64,000 nt of DNA, from NCBI GenBank assembly GCA_036490475.1, contig DASXDT010000004.1, forward strand, positions 23,797-87,796, read 5' to 3'. Positions 1-14,729 of the stretch are shown one piece after another (positions within the stretch are counted from its first letter, which is position 1; every line of letters begins with the position of its first letter). The stretch is from Candidatus Tumulicola sp. (GTDB lineage Bacteria; Vulcanimicrobiota; Vulcanimicrobiia; Vulcanimicrobiales; Vulcanimicrobiaceae). The position numbers and the translations under genes were made by a program. The notes beneath the pieces were generated by a model, which worked only from the letters and a program-made list of their open reading frames with translations, searched no databases and was not told the origin of the DNA.

Positions 1-385
1 GAATCTTATTTTGATATTGTAGCGTCTGTTGAAGAACCGCGCCGTATTTCTTGTAGACCAGAATCTGACCGAGGTTCAGAGCAGTATAGAGATACAGGTG
101 GCCGGACGCGCCCGCAGCGATCCCAGGATAGTTGTCTACGCCCGGGCCACTTCCGACGTCTCCAAATTTGCGATCCAACGTCGCGCCGGCGGCGGAATAA
201 GCGCTCACCCAACCTGCCTTCTTACCAACCTGCCGATTGAGAACATAGACTGTAGAAGGTGTTGACCCAGCATGTCGCGCGCGAGACAACGCGGGTTTTG
301 CTTGCTGGGCCGGCGACGCTCCGCCGTTGCAACCTGTTAGGACGAGAGCCGCCAAACTCGCGGCTACAAGGGCGCTCCGATACAT
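1..385 (-). CDS. putative lipoprotein, N-terminal part only (gene runs off the window start)
   Basis: ATG at 385-383 opens MYRSALVAASLAALVLTGC (lipobox LTGC). I translated the frame by hand and it stays open to base 2. It is absent from the ORF track because no stop lies inside the window. GHLYLYTALNLGQILVY resembles the strand motifs of the 8870-12769 paralogs. Confidence 0.5.
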   Translation of the reverse strand, partial: MYRSALVAASLAALVLTGCNGGASPAQQAKPALSRARHAGSTPSTVYVLNRQVGKKAGWVSAYSAAGATLDRKFGDVGSGPGVDNYPGIAAGASGHLYLYTALNLGQILVYKKYGAVLQQTLQYQNKI

Positions 386-679
386 CGATAACCTTTCGAA
401 CAATACATTAGTTTGAGAACGACTCCCGGTAGATCCAAGTACAACGCGGCTAACGATCACTCGCCAATGTTGGAGCCTAGAGCTACCAACATAGATGTTT
501 GGCTCCGGCCAAATATCCGTTCGAACCAGCCGACGGCGCCCCCTGCGGTTAGCGTTTCACCTGAGTTTTAATGGAACCAACATGGTTTGGGGGCAAGCAC
601 GGTTCAACAACATGCGCCTCCAGGGGAGGCCAGCAGTAGGTCCCGAACGGCTAGTTCCGATACTTGTGGGGTATGCCAA

Positions 680-5892: not shown

Positions 5893-6558
5893 TCACGTCG
5901 CCGAGCCCTCTACGATTCGCACTACGGTAGGCAGCGGGTCGGCAGATAGTAGCGCCGCCCACAGATTCGCTTTTTGCCAAGTCAACTGTCCCCCAACGAT
6001 TTGTTCCGACCCAGTTTCTCCCACCAGGTCATGGATTGTCGGTATGAACTTCACATCACCGTCGAGCATGATTGCCACATTTCGACCGATGTATCGTCCG
6101 ATGAAACGATTGTATGCCTTCGGGTCGGCAAACTTGATAACGAGCGCAGGATAGGGCATGTACGGTAGTACGAAGGCATTTGAAAGCGCGCGATCGTTGA
6201 CGGATGGGTACGTCGGACCGTGCGGCATTATCTTAAATGCGATTTTTCCGGTTTGTGTGAAGATCAACGTATTATAGTTGCGCGCCGTTTGGAACGTGAT
6301 GCAGATTCCATCGAACTTCGTTGCATAGGCGGTAGCCTTCATGCCGCCGGCTTTCATCCGTTTTCGTTCGATAAGCAGAGTTTGCTCAAGCTGATTCGCA
6401 GATGGGGCGGCCCCATCTGCCGCTCGAACGCTCAATAGGATCGAGCACGGCACAGCTTGGCCCGTTTCGGCTGCACGAGGCGGAGTCGAAACGGCCAGCG
6501 CCGCGATCAACGTTATGGCAGCGGCGAAGACGAACCTGACAATAGCAATCATGTTCAT
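5893..6558 (-). CDS. hypothetical secreted protein
   Basis: Signal peptide MNMIAIVRFVFAAAITLIAALAV. The segment GRNVAIMLDGDVKFIPTIHDLVGETGSEQIVGGQLTWQKANLWAALL is reminiscent of the SecD/PpiD periplasmic head motif (weak). Confidence 0.6.
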   Translation of the reverse strand: MNMIAIVRFVFAAAITLIAALAVSTPPRAAETGQAVPCSILLSVRAADGAAPSANQLEQTLLIERKRMKAGGMKATAYATKFDGICITFQTARNYNTLIFTQTGKIAFKIMPHGPTYPSVNDRALSNAFVLPYMPYPALVIKFADPKAYNRFIGRYIGRNVAIMLDGDVKFIPTIHDLVGETGSEQIVGGQLTWQKANLWAALLSADPLPTVVRIVEGSAT

Positions 6559-7238
6559 TTAGGTTTCGTCGTCGAGATTGGGGATGGAGACGGAGAAACG
6601 AATAGTGGAACGAATCCACGTTCGCCCGTCGAGGGATAATGGTACGGGAAGCCGATGCAGCGTTGTGCTAGCTGTACGTCGACGTCGAGCCTCATCCCGT
6701 GTTCGGGGATGTCGACCGGGATCCGGCACTCCAAATCGTCTCCGTACGATAACTCCAAAAGCGACTTTCCTGGAAAAGCGAATTCGACGTAATAGGCGGA
6801 CCCGTCGATCTCGACCGGAAGCTCGAAGTCCTTTACAACTAACTTTCCGCGGGTGAAGCCCGCGAAGGGCAGCGTCCCGTAAATCGCAGCGTGTACATCG
6901 TGATGCCCGGACCCCAGGGGCGATACCTGGACACCGACATCGCGGTCGTGACCCGGTAGAACGGTAATCAACGTATCACCCCAGCACTTCCCGTCAACGT
7001 CGAGCCCGACGTCGTACCGGCCCGGATAAACCATTGCGTGGCCGGCGTAGAAGTATGGGCCGAGGCGATTGAAAACGAGATCTGTGGTCGGGTAACCGTC
7101 CTGCGAGACCATATCGGCCTTTCGAAGTACCGTCGCGCTATTGCAACGCGAAACGACCGTGACATAAACTGTCTGCTGCCCGGGATCTGCGCTGGCAACT
7201 GTGGGCTGCATTAGCGCGACGGCGACAACGAGCGCCAT
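6555..7238 (-). CDS. hypothetical secreted protein
   Basis: Internal ATG of ORF 6555..7313 gives MALVVAVALMQPTVASA as signal peptide. 4-nt overlap with the next gene. Confidence 0.6.
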   Translation of the reverse strand: MALVVAVALMQPTVASADPGQQTVYVTVVSRCNSATVLRKADMVSQDGYPTTDLVFNRLGPYFYAGHAMVYPGRYDVGLDVDGKCWGDTLITVLPGHDRDVGVQVSPLGSGHHDVHAAIYGTLPFAGFTRGKLVVKDFELPVEIDGSAYYVEFAFPGKSLLELSYGDDLECRIPVDIPEHGMRLDVDVQLAQRCIGFPYHYPSTGERGFVPLFVSPSPSPISTTKPK

Positions 7239-7523
7239 GGCGGCGGTACTCAACGGCTGGCAACTTGGTTTCGAAGCACAACAACAGCCCCCACCGACGA
7301 GCGACTGCAGCAACAGCTAGATGCCACAACCGCTGATTCGTGGAATCGCGTAGCAATCTTCCTCGAGCCAAGAGAGCCACAAGCGCGAACAACCAAATCG
7401 TTCGTAGATCCGAGGAATTAATCGAGAGCGACGCCCCCGGTTCCGCCGGAAACGTGATCAGTGCGACGAGGCCGGAGCCGAATGCGAGCAGCACTGCGCC
7501 TAAGGAAACCGTTTGAACGTTCA
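7138..7523 (-). CDS. possible small membrane protein (extent uncertain)
   Basis: ATG 7523 is preceded by GAGGT with a 6-nt spacer. The first ~55 aa form two hydrophobic helices. The C-terminal half is Arg-rich and overlaps the next gene, so the true end is doubtful. Confidence 0.3.
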
Positions 7524-7696
7524 TGTTGAGACCTCGTCTGGGCCGTTGGGATCGATGAAATGCGTGATTTGCGGCTCGCCTTCGAGCAGTTTGATGACGC
7601 GTTCTTGCAGCCCGCACCGTACATCCAGCTGCCGATGTTAGAAACCACGGTGGCGGACGCACGCAGGAAGCTCAATTAACATCCATAAGCGATGAG

Positions 7697-8653
7697 GTGA
7701 TGCCCCTAACAATTTGTCGCGCTCTCGCTACGACTGCGCTACTGGTATCGTCGATGACGGCGTCCCTCGGCGCGGCCGCTCCGGATCGAAGTATCCACGT
7801 TACGATTGGAAGCGCCAGCATCGATATCGGCGCGATACAGCGCCTGCTTCGTGGAATTTTCCAGGCCGCTGGAGCCGATACGAGCGGGGGAATGATGGCC
7901 GCACTGGAGGGCAAGCCGCTGCTTCTCCGTGCAAAGATCGTCGATACCGTCGAGACGCCGACCGCGAAGATGCCCGTGGGGTTTCAGTATTTCTATTACG
8001 CGGGTCGCGACCCGAAAACGGAGCGCGAGATCGTTTGGCAGTCGCCGGCGACAAAACATTTCTGTGTTGGAGCGCCCGGATGCCCGCCCAATGATGACTT
8101 TGTTGCCGCTTACGCGCTAGCCGCCATGGACGCTTACTACGTCGACGGCGAGCCCTGGCGGACGCTCTACAAGTCGGCGCCCGATGCCGCGTCGCGCCTC
8201 GCGCTCGGTAAAGCGATCGCAACAGCGATTAACGAGGTCGCCGCTCAAACGCAGGCCCGCGGTGTCGCGGACGTCGCGTGGATCCGCGAACGCATTACGA
8301 TCGGTACGCGTCGCAACGACGCCTACGACGCTTTGCGCTCCTTCGGGCTAGTCGCGTACAACCACGCGTTCAACCCTGGGGTTCCGATAGAATCGCCGCG
8401 GTGGAAGGGGTGCGATTACACCGATAGGACCGCGGCTGCGTGGCCCTACCACGGCGAACCGTTGCCGAAACGATCGGGTCAATGCGCGACCATGGGTTCG
8501 GATGATCCGGGACCGTTTCCATCGGCATACGTGGATGTTTCGGGCGGTTTCACGATCGCATGTGGTAGCGAAGCGTCGGTCGCACTCAACTTCGACACTT
8601 CCGATAGGATCAGTAACGTTAATATCGGCAAATTCGAATGGACGTGCATATAA
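7697..8653 (+). CDS. hypothetical secreted protein
   Basis: 318-aa ORF with signal peptide MMPLTICRALATTALLVSSMTASLGAAAP. No family recognised. Confidence 0.6.
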   Translation: MMPLTICRALATTALLVSSMTASLGAAAPDRSIHVTIGSASIDIGAIQRLLRGIFQAAGADTSGGMMAALEGKPLLLRAKIVDTVETPTAKMPVGFQYFYYAGRDPKTEREIVWQSPATKHFCVGAPGCPPNDDFVAAYALAAMDAYYVDGEPWRTLYKSAPDAASRLALGKAIATAINEVAAQTQARGVADVAWIRERITIGTRRNDAYDALRSFGLVAYNHAFNPGVPIESPRWKGCDYTDRTAAAWPYHGEPLPKRSGQCATMGSDDPGPFPSAYVDVSGGFTIACGSEASVALNFDTSDRISNVNIGKFEWTCI

Positions 8654-8869: not shown

Positions 8870-9820
8870 CTAGCGGCCGATCACGGCACCGAAAGCGAAC
8901 TTGAACCCCGTTATCGTTTCGATCGGAAAACCGCCGGCCGGATAGTTGTAGATTGAAACGTACGACGCACCGTCGCAGTAACCGGGAACGATCACTTTAT
9001 CGCTGTCGATGAAGTACTGATTTACAAGGCAGTCACCCTCAAGCAAGGTCGATCCAACTGATTTCCCGCCAACGATCCGATAAATGAAAGGTTTTCGCAT
9101 ATCTCCGACGGTCATGTTCGTTCCGTCGTACTGGATGTTTCCCGGAAATGCGATTTGCGGGCCACGCCAGCGGATGTTTACGAGATGTTTTGCGCCAGAT
9201 GGCAGCTGGTCGAGTCGAAAGTCCGAGTAATCTACGAACGGCGTGCCATCAACGAACAGATTCCCGTTCGGATCGTAGCCCAAGAATTCGTAGAAAAACA
9301 TGCCTTTGTCGGAATACGTTCTTGGCTTCGAGGTAAGCGCATCAAAAATTACCACGTCGCCGGGATCGTCTCCACCGAACGTGCTGTTCGCGACCGCTAC
9401 GTCTCCGTTCGTCGGATTGACGGCACAAGCGTTCGCCTCGTCCTCTGATCCTATTTGCAGCGTACGGATCGATTTGGTTCCACCATGACGGAACTCAGCG
9501 ACCCATGAAGTGTATCCACCTCTTTCCGCGATCCAGACGTTTCCTGTCTTCGGCTCGACGCACATACCCGCCGGGAGACTGATCCCCGACAGCATTCCAA
9601 CGGGCGCGAGGGAGGGATAGGAGTAGACAAATACTTTCGAGGCGTCTAAATCGGAAATATACAGCAAGGCACCCCGTTTTGCGCTGTTATGGGCCGCGAC
9701 GGTTGGAACGACTGTTTGCGGAATCGCACTCGGCAAGCCGGTCGTCGTGCGCGAGCCGGCGCATCCCGCGAATATGGCGGCTACGGCATAAGCGGCGGCC
9801 TGGCAGGCGATGCGGTTCAT
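8870..9820 (-). CDS. lipoprotein, beta-propeller-like repeat protein (paralog 1)
   Basis: Lipobox FAGC. Motifs LLYISD, VFVYSYPSL, GMCVEPKTGNVWI, ACAVNPTNGDVAVAN, GNLFVDG, VSIYNYPAGG are shared with 9817..10755 and 11852..12769. Confidence 0.8.
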   Translation of the reverse strand: MNRIACQAAAYAVAAIFAGCAGSRTTTGLPSAIPQTVVPTVAAHNSAKRGALLYISDLDASKVFVYSYPSLAPVGMLSGISLPAGMCVEPKTGNVWIAERGGYTSWVAEFRHGGTKSIRTLQIGSEDEANACAVNPTNGDVAVANSTFGGDDPGDVVIFDALTSKPRTYSDKGMFFYEFLGYDPNGNLFVDGTPFVDYSDFRLDQLPSGAKHLVNIRWRGPQIAFPGNIQYDGTNMTVGDMRKPFIYRIVGGKSVGSTLLEGDCLVNQYFIDSDKVIVPGYCDGASYVSIYNYPAGGFPIETITGFKFAFGAVIGR

Positions 9821-10755
9821 CGGCTGATTACCGCGCCGAACGCAGTACTGAATCCGGTTAATGTCGCTATCGGCGCGCCGCCGGCCGGATAGTTGTAAAC
9901 CGACACTGTAGCCACGCTGCTGCAGTTACTCGGCGCGATCACCTTGTCGCCGTCGATGTAGTACTGGTCCACACTGCAGGCGCCACCGAGGGCGGTCGTC
10001 CCCAATACCCTTCCGCCGGCGGTCTGGTAAATGAGTGCGTTGTGCCCGTCGCCGACCGCTATGTTTGAACCGTCGTACTGAACGTTCCCCGCATAGGCGA
10101 TTTGCGGACCGCGCCAGCGAATGTTGACAAGTTTGTTTGCGCCATTCGGTAGCTCGTCAAATCGAAACAGCGACTGGTAATAGGTCGGGGTGCCGTCGAC
10201 GAACAGGTTGCCGCGGTCGTCATACCCTAGAAACTCAACATAGTACAGGCCCTTTTCGTAATACGTCTTCGACTTGCCGGTGCGAAGGTTGAAGAGTATG
10301 ACGTCACCGGGGTCGTCTCCGCCGAATGTGATATTCGCGACCGCTAATTCGCCCTTCGTCGGGTTGACGGCGCAAGCATCGGCAATGTTGTCTTCTCCGA
10401 TCTGCAGCGTGCGTATGGGTTTGGTTGCACCATGAGCAAACTCGACGGCTCCAGCAGCATACGGGCTCGATTCGGTAATCCAAACGTTACCCGTTTTTGG
10501 ATCCACGCACATGCCCGTCGGGTTGTTGATCCCCGTCAGCAGGCCGGCGGGCTTCAGTGACGGATACGAGTACATAAACACCGTCCCGGTGTCCTGATCC
10601 GATATGTAGAGCAACGCGCTGCGTTTAGCTTCGTCTAGCGTTTGCGGTATCGCACTCGGAACGTCGTTCGCCGCGCGAGAGCCGGCGCAGCCCGCGAGCG
10701 CTGCGATTCCTACAAAAAGGACGATCTGGCGAGCAAAGCAATTCAAAACGTTCAT
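9817..10755 (-). CDS. lipoprotein, beta-propeller-like repeat protein (paralog 2, tandem)
   Basis: Lipobox LAGC. Collinear similarity to paralog 1 over the full length. 4-nt overlap with it. Confidence 0.8.
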   Translation of the reverse strand: MNVLNCFARQIVLFVGIAALAGCAGSRAANDVPSAIPQTLDEAKRSALLYISDQDTGTVFMYSYPSLKPAGLLTGINNPTGMCVDPKTGNVWITESSPYAAGAVEFAHGATKPIRTLQIGEDNIADACAVNPTKGELAVANITFGGDDPGDVILFNLRTGKSKTYYEKGLYYVEFLGYDDRGNLFVDGTPTYYQSLFRFDELPNGANKLVNIRWRGPQIAYAGNVQYDGSNIAVGDGHNALIYQTAGGRVLGTTALGGACSVDQYYIDGDKVIAPSNCSSVATVSVYNYPAGGAPIATLTGFSTAFGAVISR

Positions 10756-10773
10756 TTTTGTAAGCTCCTCACA

Positions 10774-11742
10774 CTACCAAGATAGTACGACCTTTCCGTT
10801 GCCGGACGAAGCGCCGGCTTGAATGTTTTTTACGTGGGTCGCGCCGGGCTCGACGTATGAAGAGCCGCCGCCGCCGCCACCACCGCCGCCGACGCCGCTC
10901 GTACTCGGCGTGCCCGAACCGCCGCCACCACCGCCGTAGTAACCGCCGCCACCACCACCGCCTCCGCCCGCGTGGAGTTGCTTTCTGCCGCCTCCGAGGC
11001 CGCCGCGGCCGAGCTTGCCGGGATCACCCGGAATGCCTTGGGGGAAGCCCGATCGCTGCCCACCTGGTCCCCCGGCCCCGCCGGCGCTCTGCGTACCGCC
11101 CAAACCGCCGAATCCGCTGGGATTTCCGGGAAAACCGCTTCCGCCAGGTCCCCCGATATTTCCGCCACCCAATCCGCCTGCGCCGCCACCGTAGAAACCG
11201 CCGCCGATGCCGGGTCCACCACCCCCGCCAGCAACGATCACGCGATCCTTTAGGCGATCGCCGCCGACGCGAACATCCGAGGCGCCCGCGCCGCCGCAAC
11301 CTCCGTCAGTAAAAAAAGCGCTGTAATCGATTCCTACGCCACCAATCCCACCACCATTGAAACCGCCAAGGCCGCCGGCACCTGAAAGACCGAGCTGGCC
11401 CTTTCCGCCGACGAAGATCGCGAGACGTTCTCCCGGCTTAACGGGGATAGTGGCTTGCACCAGGCCTCCGTTACTTCCGGTAAAGTACGGGCCGCTCGAA
11501 CCGTAATCGCCGCTCGGCGTGCCTCCACCGCGCGCCAAAACGGTTATCTCCGTAACGCCGCGCGGGACCCTAAAGACTTGTTCGGCGCCCGTGTATTTAA
11601 ACGTTTGGCTGCTGATTTGCGCCGCGATTTGCGCGCGCGCGGCCGGTGTCGCCGTCGGCGGCTGGTAGGCGCTGCAGCTTGAAAGCGCGGTTGCGGCCAA
11701 ACATAGAATTAACGCATCGACCCCACAAATCGAGTTCTTCAT
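10774..11742 (-). CDS. glycine-rich lipoprotein (bacterial Gly_rich / ALK-LTK glycine-rich-domain-like)
   Basis: Lipobox LSSC, then FKYTGAEQVFRVPRGVTEITVLARGGG...VQATIPVKPGERLAIFVGGKG, followed by long poly-Gly blocks (GGGGGGGGGYYGGGGGG, GGGGGGGGGSSY) and the tail GNGKVVLSW. Confidence 0.8.
   Translation of the reverse strand: MKNSICGVDALILCLAATALSSCSAYQPPTATPAARAQIAAQISSQTFKYTGAEQVFRVPRGVTEITVLARGGGTPSGDYGSSGPYFTGSNGGLVQATIPVKPGERLAIFVGGKGQLGLSGAGGLGGFNGGGIGGVGIDYSAFFTDGGCGGAGASDVRVGGDRLKDRVIVAGGGGGPGIGGGFYGGGAGGLGGGNIGGPGGSGFPGNPSGFGGLGGTQSAGGAGGPGGQRSGFPQGIPGDPGKLGRGGLGGGRKQLHAGGGGGGGGGYYGGGGGGSGTPSTSGVGGGGGGGGGSSYVEPGATHVKNIQAGASSGNGKVVLSW
10857..10975. repeat. low-complexity GCC/ACC codon tract (poly-Gly coding)
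   Basis: Runs of gccgccgccgccaccaccgccgcc and similar, the reverse complement of GGN codons inside the glycine-rich gene. Confidence 0.8.
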
Positions 11743-11851
11743 GCGTTCGGCTCCTCGTCCGGATTTATCGCGTCGCTTGCGATGATTTCGTGGCGCGCAG
11801 TTTACCTCTCCTGTGCCGAAGTGGTAGGTTTAATGCGGGAGGTTCTATACA

Positions 11852-12769
11852 ATGCTACTCCGTTTTAGCCGCACCTTCGGGCTTGTCACTTCCCTTGTGC
11901 TCGTTAGTTGCGCGGGCTCCACTTTTACACCGGGACCGGAAGTAAGGGTAGCGACCCAACACGATGCCAAAACAGCCCCGCTGCTATACGTATCCGATCC
12001 ATCCGTTAACGAAGTGCTGGTGTACTCGTATCCGGCACTACGACTCGTACAGACGCTCAGCGGAGAACTGCGGGAGCCAGCCGCTCTGTGTGTGGACGAT
12101 ACGACCGGCAACATTTGGGTGGTCGCCGCCGGCAACAACAAACTTTTCGAGTACGCCCACGGTGGCGCGACCCCGATCAAAATCATAAAAGTGGCGAGCT
12201 ACGGCACAGCCCTCTCCGGCTGTGCAATCGATGCAACGAACGGCGACGTTGCGGTGGCCATTCGAGGAATCGCAGAGGACCCGGGCGGCGTACTTGTTCT
12301 AAAGAGCGGAGTTCGGAAACCGCAGCTTTACTTCGACCGCACCCAACGTCTTTATGCGTATTTTCTTGCATACGATCCAAAAGGCAATCTTTTTGTCGAC
12401 GGGATAGCGCACAGGCCGTTCGTTTATGATGAGTTGCCGGCCAACACTAAAACGTTCACAAATATAAACCTCGAGGGCGCCAAGGTTCGTGCGCCCGGAG
12501 GCGTTCAATATCATGCGGGCAACATCGCTATCGCGGATCATAAGAGAGGGATCATCTATCGAACGTCCGGTGCAACGGTGACGGGAAGCACGACGCTCAA
12601 AGGCTCTTGTAACATCGAACAATTTCTAGTTCGAGGAGACAAGGCAGTGGTGGCCAGCAACTGTGCGGGGAGCAGCCGAATACTCGTTTATAATTATCCA
12701 GCGGGGGGCTCGGCGATCGGCCAGATTTCGGGCCTCAGCGGGACGTTTGGCGTGGCGATCAGCTACTAA
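11852..12769 (+). CDS. lipoprotein, beta-propeller-like repeat protein (paralog 3, inverted)
   Basis: Lipobox LVSC. LLYVSD, VLVYSYPAL, ALCVDDTTGNIWV, GCAIDATNGDVAVA, GNLFVDG, ILVYNYPAGG match paralogs 1 and 2. Confidence 0.8.
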   Translation: MLLRFSRTFGLVTSLVLVSCAGSTFTPGPEVRVATQHDAKTAPLLYVSDPSVNEVLVYSYPALRLVQTLSGELREPAALCVDDTTGNIWVVAAGNNKLFEYAHGGATPIKIIKVASYGTALSGCAIDATNGDVAVAIRGIAEDPGGVLVLKSGVRKPQLYFDRTQRLYAYFLAYDPKGNLFVDGIAHRPFVYDELPANTKTFTNINLEGAKVRAPGGVQYHAGNIAIADHKRGIIYRTSGATVTGSTTLKGSCNIEQFLVRGDKAVVASNCAGSSRILVYNYPAGGSAIGQISGLSGTFGVAISY

Positions 12770-12971: not shown

Positions 12972-13463
12972 ATGAATGACTCAAGCGATTTCGAATCGGG
13001 AATCTATTATGATCCGGCGAGTGCTGAAGCGCGCATTCAGAGGCTTTACGAGCTAGGCTATTCCGACAAAGACATAAGCGTCATGATGCGCGACCAGGAG
13101 AAGGCGAAAGCCTTTGCGGCGCACACCGGCGGTCATGCTGCCGAAGGTGCCGTGACCGGCGGTGCAATTGACGGCGGCCTCGGCGCGATTATCGCCGGCC
13201 TCACGGCGACCGGCAGTATAGTCGCTGTTGTAGGAACGGGCGGTCTTGCCGCGCCCGTCGTGGTCGGTCCGCTTGTGGCCGCGCTTGCGGGCTTAGGTGC
13301 CGGAGCTGCTGCAGGTGGCATCGTCGGAGCGTTGGTTGGAGCCGGCATTCCAAAAGAAAAGGCGGAACAGTACAGCGAGGGTCTCGATCGCGGCGGTATT
13401 TTATTAGGCGTGAACGCCCGACCGGATAATCGCGATAAGGTGCGCGGCGTTTTCTCGGACTAA
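12972..13463 (+). CDS. general-stress-type protein (YflT-like domains flanking a glycine-zipper membrane segment)
   Basis: AEARIQRLYELGYSDKDISVMMRD, then the Gly/Ala zipper GGLGAIIAGLTATGS...GAGAAAGGIVGALVGAG, then EKAEQYSEGLDRGGILLGV. AAGGAAAG SD. Confidence 0.7.
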   Translation: MNDSSDFESGIYYDPASAEARIQRLYELGYSDKDISVMMRDQEKAKAFAAHTGGHAAEGAVTGGAIDGGLGAIIAGLTATGSIVAVVGTGGLAAPVVVGPLVAALAGLGAGAAAGGIVGALVGAGIPKEKAEQYSEGLDRGGILLGVNARPDNRDKVRGVFSD

Positions 13464-13661: not shown

Positions 13662-14729
13662 TTATGCGACCACTTCTGCCCGTACGGCTGCAGCCTCGAA
13701 GTCGATGGTAAATCGTGCGAGTGTGATCTTCGCATCTGCCGCACCGTAGTAGACGTCGTACGTTCCGTCTTCCCGAACGTCGAGGCCGGTTGGAAAAACG
13801 ACATCGTCGACGATTCCGAAACGTTCGTCCGGAGTGACAGGCCCAAGCACCGGGACCGGCGACCGGTATATAATGTGGTGCGGACGCTCGAGGTCGTGTA
13901 CGATGATGCCCGCTCGATAGAGCAGTCCCTGACGTCCATCGCGCTTGACTGGATCGACGCCATGAAAGAACGACAGCCAACCGCCAAGACACCGCACTGG
14001 CGGCGTGCCGGCGCCGTTCTTCAGCCAGCCCCAGCGTTCGTCGACGCCAAGAAGCTCGACGCTTTCGTGCGCTTCACACAGCGCCGAAATGTCGCGTTCT
14101 ACTCGCGAGACGGGGATGTATGCGAGATACGTCGTTTCACGGTGGCTTGGATCAAGGGCCAGGATCACGGAGATTGGCGTCTGCCCGTTCACGCTGCCCG
14201 GCAACATCGGGCGATGGTAGAACGCATAGGACAGCACGCCGGTAGGCGAGAGCACCGGCTCTGGGAAGATAGCCGCGTCTTTGTTGTCGCGAGCGTTGAG
14301 CGGATGGTTTACAAACTCGACGAGCCCAAGCCGGCGCCACGAATATCCATCGCTGGATACAGCTAGCGCGATGCGAGGACCCGCGTCGCCGAAGGCGGTG
14401 TACGCCATGACATAAGCGTCGAGTCGGGGGACGAAGGTGACGCGAGCATCCTCGCAACCGTGTTCGCCATCGCGCAGCTCGTAGGGCGCTTCGGGTTCCA
14501 GCACGTATCCCAAACGCTCGAACGTTACGTTGCCATCAGATTCATCGCCTTTCGTCAGTCCGATTCGTGAAACGTTGCCTTGTGCCACGATGCGTGGATA
14601 CATGAGCAAAGCTCCGCTGCGATCGCGCGTGACACCGGGATTGAGTACACCTTCTATTTCGTTCGCGCTCCCGTCGGACGCGAGCACGATGCCCAAGCGG
14701 GTGTAGGTCGAAGAAACTTCCACGATCAA
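13662..14729 (-). CDS. glycoside hydrolase family 130-like (beta-mannoside phosphorylase/glycosidase fold)
   Basis: GVLNPGVTRDRSG...SRIGLT...GCEDARVTFVPRLDAYVMAYTAFGDAGPRIALAVSSDGYSWRRLG...DNKDAAIFPE, a GH130/DUF377-type pattern. TTGA overlap with the upstream gene. Confidence 0.75.
   Translation of the reverse strand: MIVEVSSTYTRLGIVLASDGSANEIEGVLNPGVTRDRSGALLMYPRIVAQGNVSRIGLTKGDESDGNVTFERLGYVLEPEAPYELRDGEHGCEDARVTFVPRLDAYVMAYTAFGDAGPRIALAVSSDGYSWRRLGLVEFVNHPLNARDNKDAAIFPEPVLSPTGVLSYAFYHRPMLPGSVNGQTPISVILALDPSHRETTYLAYIPVSRVERDISALCEAHESVELLGVDERWGWLKNGAGTPPVRCLGGWLSFFHGVDPVKRDGRQGLLYRAGIIVHDLERPHHIIYRSPVPVLGPVTPDERFGIVDDVVFPTGLDVREDGTYDVYYGAADAKITLARFTIDFEAAAVRAEVVA

Follow-up and report, generated by a model that had tools for sequence, protein, structure and literature searches.

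Towards the start of the 64,000-nucleotide stretch of Candidatus Tumulicola sp. DNA analysed here (the window) lies a cluster of four genes for predicted lipoproteins: three paralogs, which we call pA, pB, and pC, and a glycine-rich lipoprotein, GRD, whose gene is situated between those of pB and pC (Table 1). An earlier note, made from the sequence alone, had placed four open reading frames (ORFs) here, with a 4-nucleotide overlap in the tandem pair and a lipobox on every protein. All four ORFs lie exactly at the positions it gave, the overlap is an ATGA shared by pB and pA, and the lipoboxes read FAGC (pA), LAGC (pB), LVSC (pC), and LSSC (GRD). Because of their spacing, GRD, pB, and pA look like a single operon, with pC divergent from it. 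Shine-Dalgarno sequences can be read upstream of GRD and pB (GAGGAG in both) and of pC (GGGAGG), and the intergenic region between GRD and pC presumably holds promoters; a scan of this region for the sigma-70 consensus returned no promoter, and the counts from a combined sigma-70 promoter and terminator scan were at or below shuffle expectation. The note had also suspected a fourth lipoprotein of similar style starting at position 385 of the minus strand. This gene is real and encodes a distant member of the same family, corresponding to C4:23078-24256 of the genome and extending beyond the edge of the window.

Table 1. Features of the locus and regulator genes near related loci. Positions refer to the window; those prefixed C2 lie elsewhere in the genome.
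Feature	Position	Strand	Remarks
N-terminal part of a distant family member	1..460	-	ATG at 385; lipobox LTGC; family profile E=6.4e-17
pA, 316-residue predicted lipoprotein	8870..9820	-	last gene of the apparent GRD-pB-pA operon; family profile E=9e-104
pB, 312-residue predicted lipoprotein	9817..10755	-	ATGA overlap with pA; propeller by AlphaFold2 and Foldseek
GRD-pB spacer, 18 nt	10756..10773	-	contains GAGGAG, a predicted ribosome-binding site
GRD, 322-residue predicted glycine-rich lipoprotein	10774..11742	-	first gene of the apparent operon; PF12810
Divergent intergenic region GRD/pC, 109 nt	11743..11851		GAGGAG before GRD, GGGAGG before pC
pC, 305-residue predicted lipoprotein, more distant paralogue	11852..12769	+	divergent; NHL 17.6 bits
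TPR-containing, LuxR/GerE-type or sigma-region-4-like regulators and paralogues	C2:1440956-1442620, C2:108887-110800, C2:279962-281314		near propeller-family genes

The assignment of the four proteins as lipoproteins follows a criterion of two parts, a signal peptide ending in [LVI][ASTVI][GAS]C and a processing enzyme encoded in the genome. In pA, pB, pC, and GRD the lipobox-like sequences occupy residues 16-23 and follow hydrophobic N-termini, while the genome encodes the signal peptidase LspA (PF01252, 116 bits), which makes lipidation of all four likely. The genome also carries an Omp85/BamA homologue, and together with LspA this points to a diderm cell with a lipoprotein pathway. In such a cell the four proteins may be surface-exposed, as the earlier note proposed, or periplasmic.

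The three paralogs are related far beyond chance, with a search of the genome using pB returning pA at E=7.5e-123 and pC at E=1.9e-61. Six of the collinear motifs listed in the earlier note were tested by regular expression, and each occurs once, in identical order, in all three proteins. Its estimate of roughly 70 percent DNA identity stands for pA and pB, which are 67% identical in DNA and 61% in protein, and fails for pC, which shares only 49-51% of its DNA sequence with the other two and 39% of its protein sequence with pA. In a tree of the family, pC clusters with pA, pB, and C6:618935 with a support of 99/100. The nearest species available (L057: MFD04212.bin.2.39, contig CAWAZM010000020.1) carries the tandem pB-pA pair intact, with a pA orthologue 83% identical to that of the window, in agreement with the view that the duplication is old and maintained. 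The pA/pB identities, together with this orthologous pair, rule out a recent duplication; at such distances synonymous sites are already saturated.

The fold of the paralogs was examined on an AlphaFold2 model of pB built with 67 homologues. The model (predicted local distance difference test, pLDDT, of 89.6) is all-beta with 24 strands, which we read as six blades of four strands each, with the N- and C-termini closing the propeller. When it was compared with the PDB using Foldseek, six-bladed propellers came first (nidogen/LRP YWTD domains and Pizza6), with template-modelling (TM) scores of 0.65-0.81 normalised by target, and seven-bladed WD40 propellers (WDR5) followed at lower TM; no specific enzyme stood among the best matches. 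The propeller-like character proposed from the sequence is thus borne out. A profile of the family searched against the PDB recovers the NHL sensor domain of Mycobacterium tuberculosis PknD (1RWI, E=2.5e-25), Pizza6/7 (1e-33 to 1e-38), and TRIM-NHL proteins (1e-6), and all of these NHL-type matches pass through one well-preserved blade at residues 77-116. The absence of a recognisable characterised family, as the earlier note had it, was confirmed in that no Pfam or NCBIfam model exceeded its cut-off for pA, pB, or pC. The best Pfam model was NHL (PF01436, gathering score 20 bits), which reached 17.1 bits for pB and 17.6 bits for pC and did not match pA. The Pfam search of the paralogs gave no DUF5128 match, and PHROGs held no match for them. 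As modelled, the paralogs are divergent NHL-type six-bladed propellers, predicted to be lipid-anchored through a disordered linker of about 25 residues.

The closest known relative of the paralogs is the NHL sensor of PknD, and that of the middle gene's product is the glycine-rich domain of ALK/LTK. The Pizza designer propellers were derived from the PknD sensor domain, and both resemble the family in having six NHL-type blades without a catalytic site, in a protein that is extracytoplasmic and presumed to bind a ligand. In contrast to both, only the blade at residues 77-116 is still canonical NHL in the family, where Pfam NHL remains below cut-off. Unlike PknD, the family proteins are free-standing and predicted to be lipid-tethered, lack a kinase fusion, and number about 100 copies per genome.

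This copy number places the three paralogs in a wider setting. A tblastn search with pB found 47 copies in the 3.32-Mb genome, and a profile hidden Markov model (HMM) built from 45 strong members matched 106 ORFs at E<1e-10, including 41 at E<1e-80, which occupy 3.4% of the bases of the genome. The three paralogs are a sample of this family of about 106 members, and the idea that they form a special trio around the glycine-rich gene was not upheld. At least 73 of the 106 members have a lipobox and a hydrophobic h-region, and a rough count over the whole genome puts lipobox ORFs at about 279, so that the family probably makes up over a quarter of the predicted lipoproteins. The members are arranged as 63 singletons, 17 pairs, and 3 triples, with 10 of them inside 31 kb at the window's end of the contig. 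In the family tree, old lineages stand beside tandem triplets of recent origin (branch lengths 0.06-0.28), and some copies are split or fragmented, which together argue for birth-and-death evolution. One member departs from the common architecture: C3:165650-168403 encodes a 917-residue lipoprotein in which the family propeller is fused to a C-terminal region of about 600 residues with a weak PQQ_2/BamB-like propeller signal, and frames of similar length (925 and 929 residues) are found in two genomes of a sister genus.

The expansion is narrow in its taxonomic range. In a sample of 61 genomes of the phylum, searched at E<=1e-10, it is confined to the genus of the window and one sister genus (g1 and g4 of one family). 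Five of the six expanded genomes have at least 36 matches and the sixth has 34, with 0-2 matches in other genera of the same family and 0 in the rest of the phylum; in the sister genus, from which five genomes were sampled, the expansion is comparable to that in the window's genome. Pattern scanning of GTDB genomes with the alignment of the three paralogs gave 25 loci, all 25 of them in Eremiobacterota (Candidatus Cybelea, Baltobacteraceae, Vulcanimicrobiota), and the named homologues are likewise from Candidatus Cybelea. Among 1.84 billion metagenome cluster representatives (clusters at 50% identity), the profile matched 3,647 at E<=1e-30; the best 150 of these are mostly full-length proteins of about 310-360 residues, with a few fusions of two or three propellers. 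The sequencing runs that contain the locus are soil metagenomes. Peat, permafrost, and polar soils contain Eremiobacterota/Vulcanimicrobiota in abundance, and hardly any of these bacteria have been cultured. In the literature searched on Eremiobacterota lipoproteins and beta-propellers, PF12810, bacterial poly-Gly II, and Candidatus Cybelea/Tumulicola, neither the family nor its linkage to GRD is described.

What such a large family might do can be approached through the pattern of conservation among 45 paralogs. The conserved positions are nearly all Gly, Pro, Tyr, Leu, or Cys, and the only conserved polar residues are E105, D179, and D236 (80-91% conserved). C83 and C128 form a near-invariant cysteine pair that may be joined by a disulfide, as would fit an extracytoplasmic protein. 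With blades assigned from the strands of the AlphaFold2 model, the B-C and D-A loops have a column entropy of 2.87 bits and the A-B and C-D loops one of 2.01 bits (p=5e-9), and insertions and deletions are located in the B-C loops. Canonical propellers bind their ligands on the face made up of the B-C and D-A loops, and by analogy we infer that the variable loops are the binding face here. Because the core is conserved while the loops of one face diverge, we read the paralogs as probable non-enzymatic binding scaffolds.

The same residues also have to be weighed for catalysis, since the paralogs could be extracytoplasmic propeller hydrolases or lyases (SGL/lactonase, PON/DFPase, strictosidine-synthase-like, or Vgb-like) expanded for many substrates. 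Weak precomputed SGL (PF08450) matches are on record for a few distant homologues, the family profile reaches the structures of DFPase, regucalcin, and PON1 in the PDB at E-values of only 0.04-0.2, and the three acidic residues are conserved to the degree given above. Secreted hydrolases are, in addition, common as neighbours of family genes elsewhere in the genome. On the other hand, no Pfam or NCBIfam enzyme family is significant for pA, pB, or pC, including the SGL and arylesterase HMMs of the calcium-dependent propeller hydrolases, and the closest structures are non-enzymatic binding propellers. Nearly all highly conserved positions are scaffold residues, and the variable positions fall on the very face where such enzymes keep a conserved active site. 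Calcium-dependent propeller hydrolases are marked by a conserved set of metal-binding Glu/Asn/Asp in the central tunnel; with conserved polar positions restricted to three, the paralogs show no catalytic set of this kind. An enzymatic role thus appears quite improbable, and a repertoire of tethered binding proteins is the best reading of these data.

Gene neighbourhoods elsewhere in the genome give a further hint. Of 25 paralogues of TPR/LuxR-type regulators (Table 1), 13 have a family member no more than 500 bp away, and the same is true of 4 of 16 beta-lactamase-like genes, 4 of 13 Asp-protease-PDZ genes, and some phosphoesterase and sedolisin genes; at random, about 7.5% of genes would be expected within 300 bp and 12.5% within 1.5 kb. 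The proportion of regulators so placed suggests a dedicated regulator for many family members.

The glycine-rich lipoprotein encoded by the middle gene is of a different kind. It matches ALK_LTK_GRD (PF12810) over residues 80-301 with 46 bits against a gathering score of 24.5 (E=8.4e-12), and its AlphaFold2 model (pLDDT 84.6) returns ALK/LTK GRD or TG domains as all of the top 21 Foldseek matches in the PDB, with E-values of 2e-6 to 5e-4 and a probability of 1.0. The ALK-GRD-like identity assigned by the earlier note is supported by the Pfam match. The fold matches point the same way but are modest, with alignments that reach a TM of only 0.32-0.43 at a root-mean-square deviation of about 10 Å; solved ALK/LTK GRDs combine a TNF-like sandwich with a poly-Gly II lattice. 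No other structural match was significant; phage fibre and tail-tip proteins lie far behind and are weak. A sequence-profile search of the PDB with the GRD alignment gave no match. Across 45 GRD homologues, an N-terminal beta-sandwich with the motif FxYTGxxQxFxVPxGV and the long glycine runs are conserved. The GRD protein also matches five PHROG phage families of unknown function (best E=8e-13), in the N-terminal part of proteins of 455-636 residues.

Relative to the receptors, GRD shares with ALK/LTK (7LRZ, 7LS0, 7NX1, 7MZY) a domain that passes the Pfam cut-off and accounts for the only significant matches of the model. In contrast to them, it is a 322-residue bacterial protein with a predicted lipid anchor that lacks a kinase as well as EGF and MAM-LDLa modules, and its surroundings contain no gene for an ALKAL-like ligand. 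The two folds and the way of anchoring are familiar ones, and nothing points to a new mechanism.

Whether GRD and the propellers belong together is best judged from the other GRD genes, of which we examined 24: the 3 of this genome (the window's and two further copies), 11 from four genomes of the sister genus, and 10 from metagenome contigs. Eight of the 24 lie within 300 bp of a propeller family member. Two more, the other two of this genome, are directly beside genes for GloVer-repeat lipoproteins (TIGR03803, choice-of-anchor tandem repeat). These resemble the family in being repeat-built lipoproteins of the same genome that flank GRD genes; they differ from it in their unrelated repeat sequence, their number of only 15 copies, and their absence from the locus studied here. 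In total, 10 of the 24 GRD genes directly adjoin a gene for a propeller-type lipoprotein (family or GloVer) and 13 have one within 1 kb, and one further GRD gene lies 18 nucleotides from a BNR/Sortilin propeller gene. As background, 8.3% of other lipobox ORFs and 5.5% of non-lipoprotein ORFs are adjacent in this way. After orthologues are collapsed, 5 of 13 GRD lineages are still directly adjacent (p ~0.003 by a hand-calculated binomial at the 8.3% background; p=0.026 at a background of 14%).

Several observations limit how tight this link can be. In L057 the pB-pA pair is intact without pC, and upstream of pB only a GRD 3'-end remnant of about 110 nucleotides, carrying a TAG and a 1-nucleotide deletion, is left (L057:1496-1590). 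Such a remnant beside an intact pair makes the GRD-pB-pA arrangement ancestral at this locus and shows that the propellers persist without GRD. The flanks of L057 are rearranged relative to the window, with counterparts of the genes at window positions 6555-8653 absent. More than 95% of the propeller family members have no GRD neighbour, and gene order varies among GRD-P-P, P-P-GRD, P-GRD-P-P, and GRD-GRD-P (P, propeller gene). Propellers next to GRD genes come from at least three or four subfamilies of the tree; a specialised GRD-associated subfamily is ruled out by this scatter. Of the 6 propeller-expanded genomes in the 61-genome sample, 5 contain PF12810, against 0 of the remaining 55, a genus-level co-occurrence that represents only one or two evolutionary events. 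The fixed association with GRD that the earlier note had posited does not hold, given 10 adjacent genes in 24 and the decayed GRD of L057. What survives of the proposed linkage is a preference, in that GRD genes adjoin genes for propeller-type lipoproteins far more often than other lipobox ORFs do, without being obliged to. The link between GRD and the propellers is real and facultative, and may stem from co-regulation, from a loose partnership, or from cassettes being mobilised together.

Two further explanations of the adjacency lie on either side of this one. In the stronger of them, GRD and the propellers would constitute a dedicated module, a physical complex or two-part recognition device whose partnership is what the linkage reflects. 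The adjacency counts set against their 8.3% background speak for such a module, as do partners drawn from two unrelated repeat families (NHL-like and GloVer) plus the BNR/Sortilin case, the tight or overlapping, operon-like spacing, and the restriction of PF12810 to propeller-expanded genomes. They are met by the loss of GRD beside an intact pair in L057, by the roughly half of GRD genes that have no propeller gene within 1 kb, by the variable gene order, by the scatter of the adjacent propellers over subfamilies without co-diversification, by the disproportion of about 3 GRD genes to about 106 propellers, and by the small number of evolutionary events behind the genus-level pattern. We regard a dedicated module as unlikely. 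A more specific version, in which ALK-type GRD lipoproteins are dedicated partners and a rigid poly-Gly scaffold is combined with an interchangeable propeller (NHL-like, GloVer, or BNR) into a modular, lipid-anchored envelope recognition device, is similarly doubtful.

In the weaker explanation, the adjacency is incidental, and GRD and propeller genes are unrelated cassettes accumulating in the same variable lipoprotein islands. The rearrangement of the locus between close species, the ten family members within 31 kb on the window's contig, the frequency of pseudogene fragments, and an IS110-family transposase beside one GRD-propeller cluster would all be expected of such islands. If proximity among lipoprotein genes were general, however, other lipoprotein ORFs should be enriched beside propeller genes, and they are not (8.3% against 5.5% for non-lipoprotein ORFs); the GloVer genes flank two of the genome's three GRD genes although there are only 15 of them; and the adjacency persists in the collapsed lineages. 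Coincidence alone seems rather unlikely to us, and the adjacency suggests shared regulation or a loose functional partnership.

Taken together, we favour, with a probability of roughly 60%, the reading that the locus is one cassette cluster in a lineage-specific expansion of lipid-anchored propeller binding scaffolds, to which GRD is loosely linked. Here, an uncultured soil member of Eremiobacterota/Vulcanimicrobiota, of the Candidatus Cybelea/Baltobacteraceae type, has expanded a family of predicted lipoproteins with six-bladed, NHL-like propellers to about 106 copies by birth and death. Each propeller would be acylated at the lipobox cysteine after export and tethered to a membrane by its flexible linker of about 25 residues, where it would serve as a non-enzymatic scaffold for a different extracytoplasmic ligand. 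The ligands would probably be soil-derived polymers or envelope signals, because the frequent neighbours of the family are TPR/LuxR-type regulators and secreted hydrolases. The GRD lipoprotein, with its probable ALK/LTK glycine-rich fold, would likewise be a rigid binding scaffold, probably co-transcribed with pB and pA; the propellers do not depend on it.

A number of points weigh against this reading. The label of the binding face depends on canonical propeller topology and not on the coordinates of the model, and loops are more variable than strands in any fold. The fairly conserved E105, D179, and D236 could make up a metal site or an active site. Regulators and hydrolases neighbour the family elsewhere in the genome and not at the locus itself. 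LolA (PF03548) was not found in the genome, by a model that also misses many control diderms, and the sequencing runs holding the locus are soil-metagenome DNA only, with no RNA run found among them.

The question of what the propeller family binds is likely central to the interaction of these organisms with their surroundings, given its share of the genome and of the predicted lipoproteins. We know of no role for bacterial relatives of the ALK/LTK glycine-rich domain. The reproducible preference of GRD genes for propeller-lipoprotein neighbours is a concrete lead on these relatives, and a GRD-propeller device, if real, would give the relatives of this ligand-binding domain their first functional context in bacteria. 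This preference is also the sole element able to raise the value of the finding, if a physical partnership is demonstrated.

Individual GRD loci add some detail. The other two GRD genes of the genome stand beside GloVer genes at C6:835358-837895 and C6:842753-845133, from which they are separated by 7 bp and about 250 bp, and one of these GloVer genes is apparently split into ORFs of 193 and 253 residues. On one metagenome contig, the IS110-family transposase (L085:7494-8450) lies 1.5 kb from the GRD-GRD-propeller cluster, as fits the occurrence of GRD-propeller clusters in mobile or variable regions. On another, which carries a GRD orthologue 78% identical to that of the window, the position of pB is taken by two overlapping propeller fragments, a broken copy (L044:6714-7665), followed by two more distant members of the family.

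Beyond the cluster itself, the gene just downstream of pC (12972-13463, plus strand) encodes a 163-residue protein that combines a YflT-like stress domain with a DUF1269-like Gly/Ala-rich membrane segment, and the next gene (13662-14729, minus strand) is GH130 phosphorylase-like.

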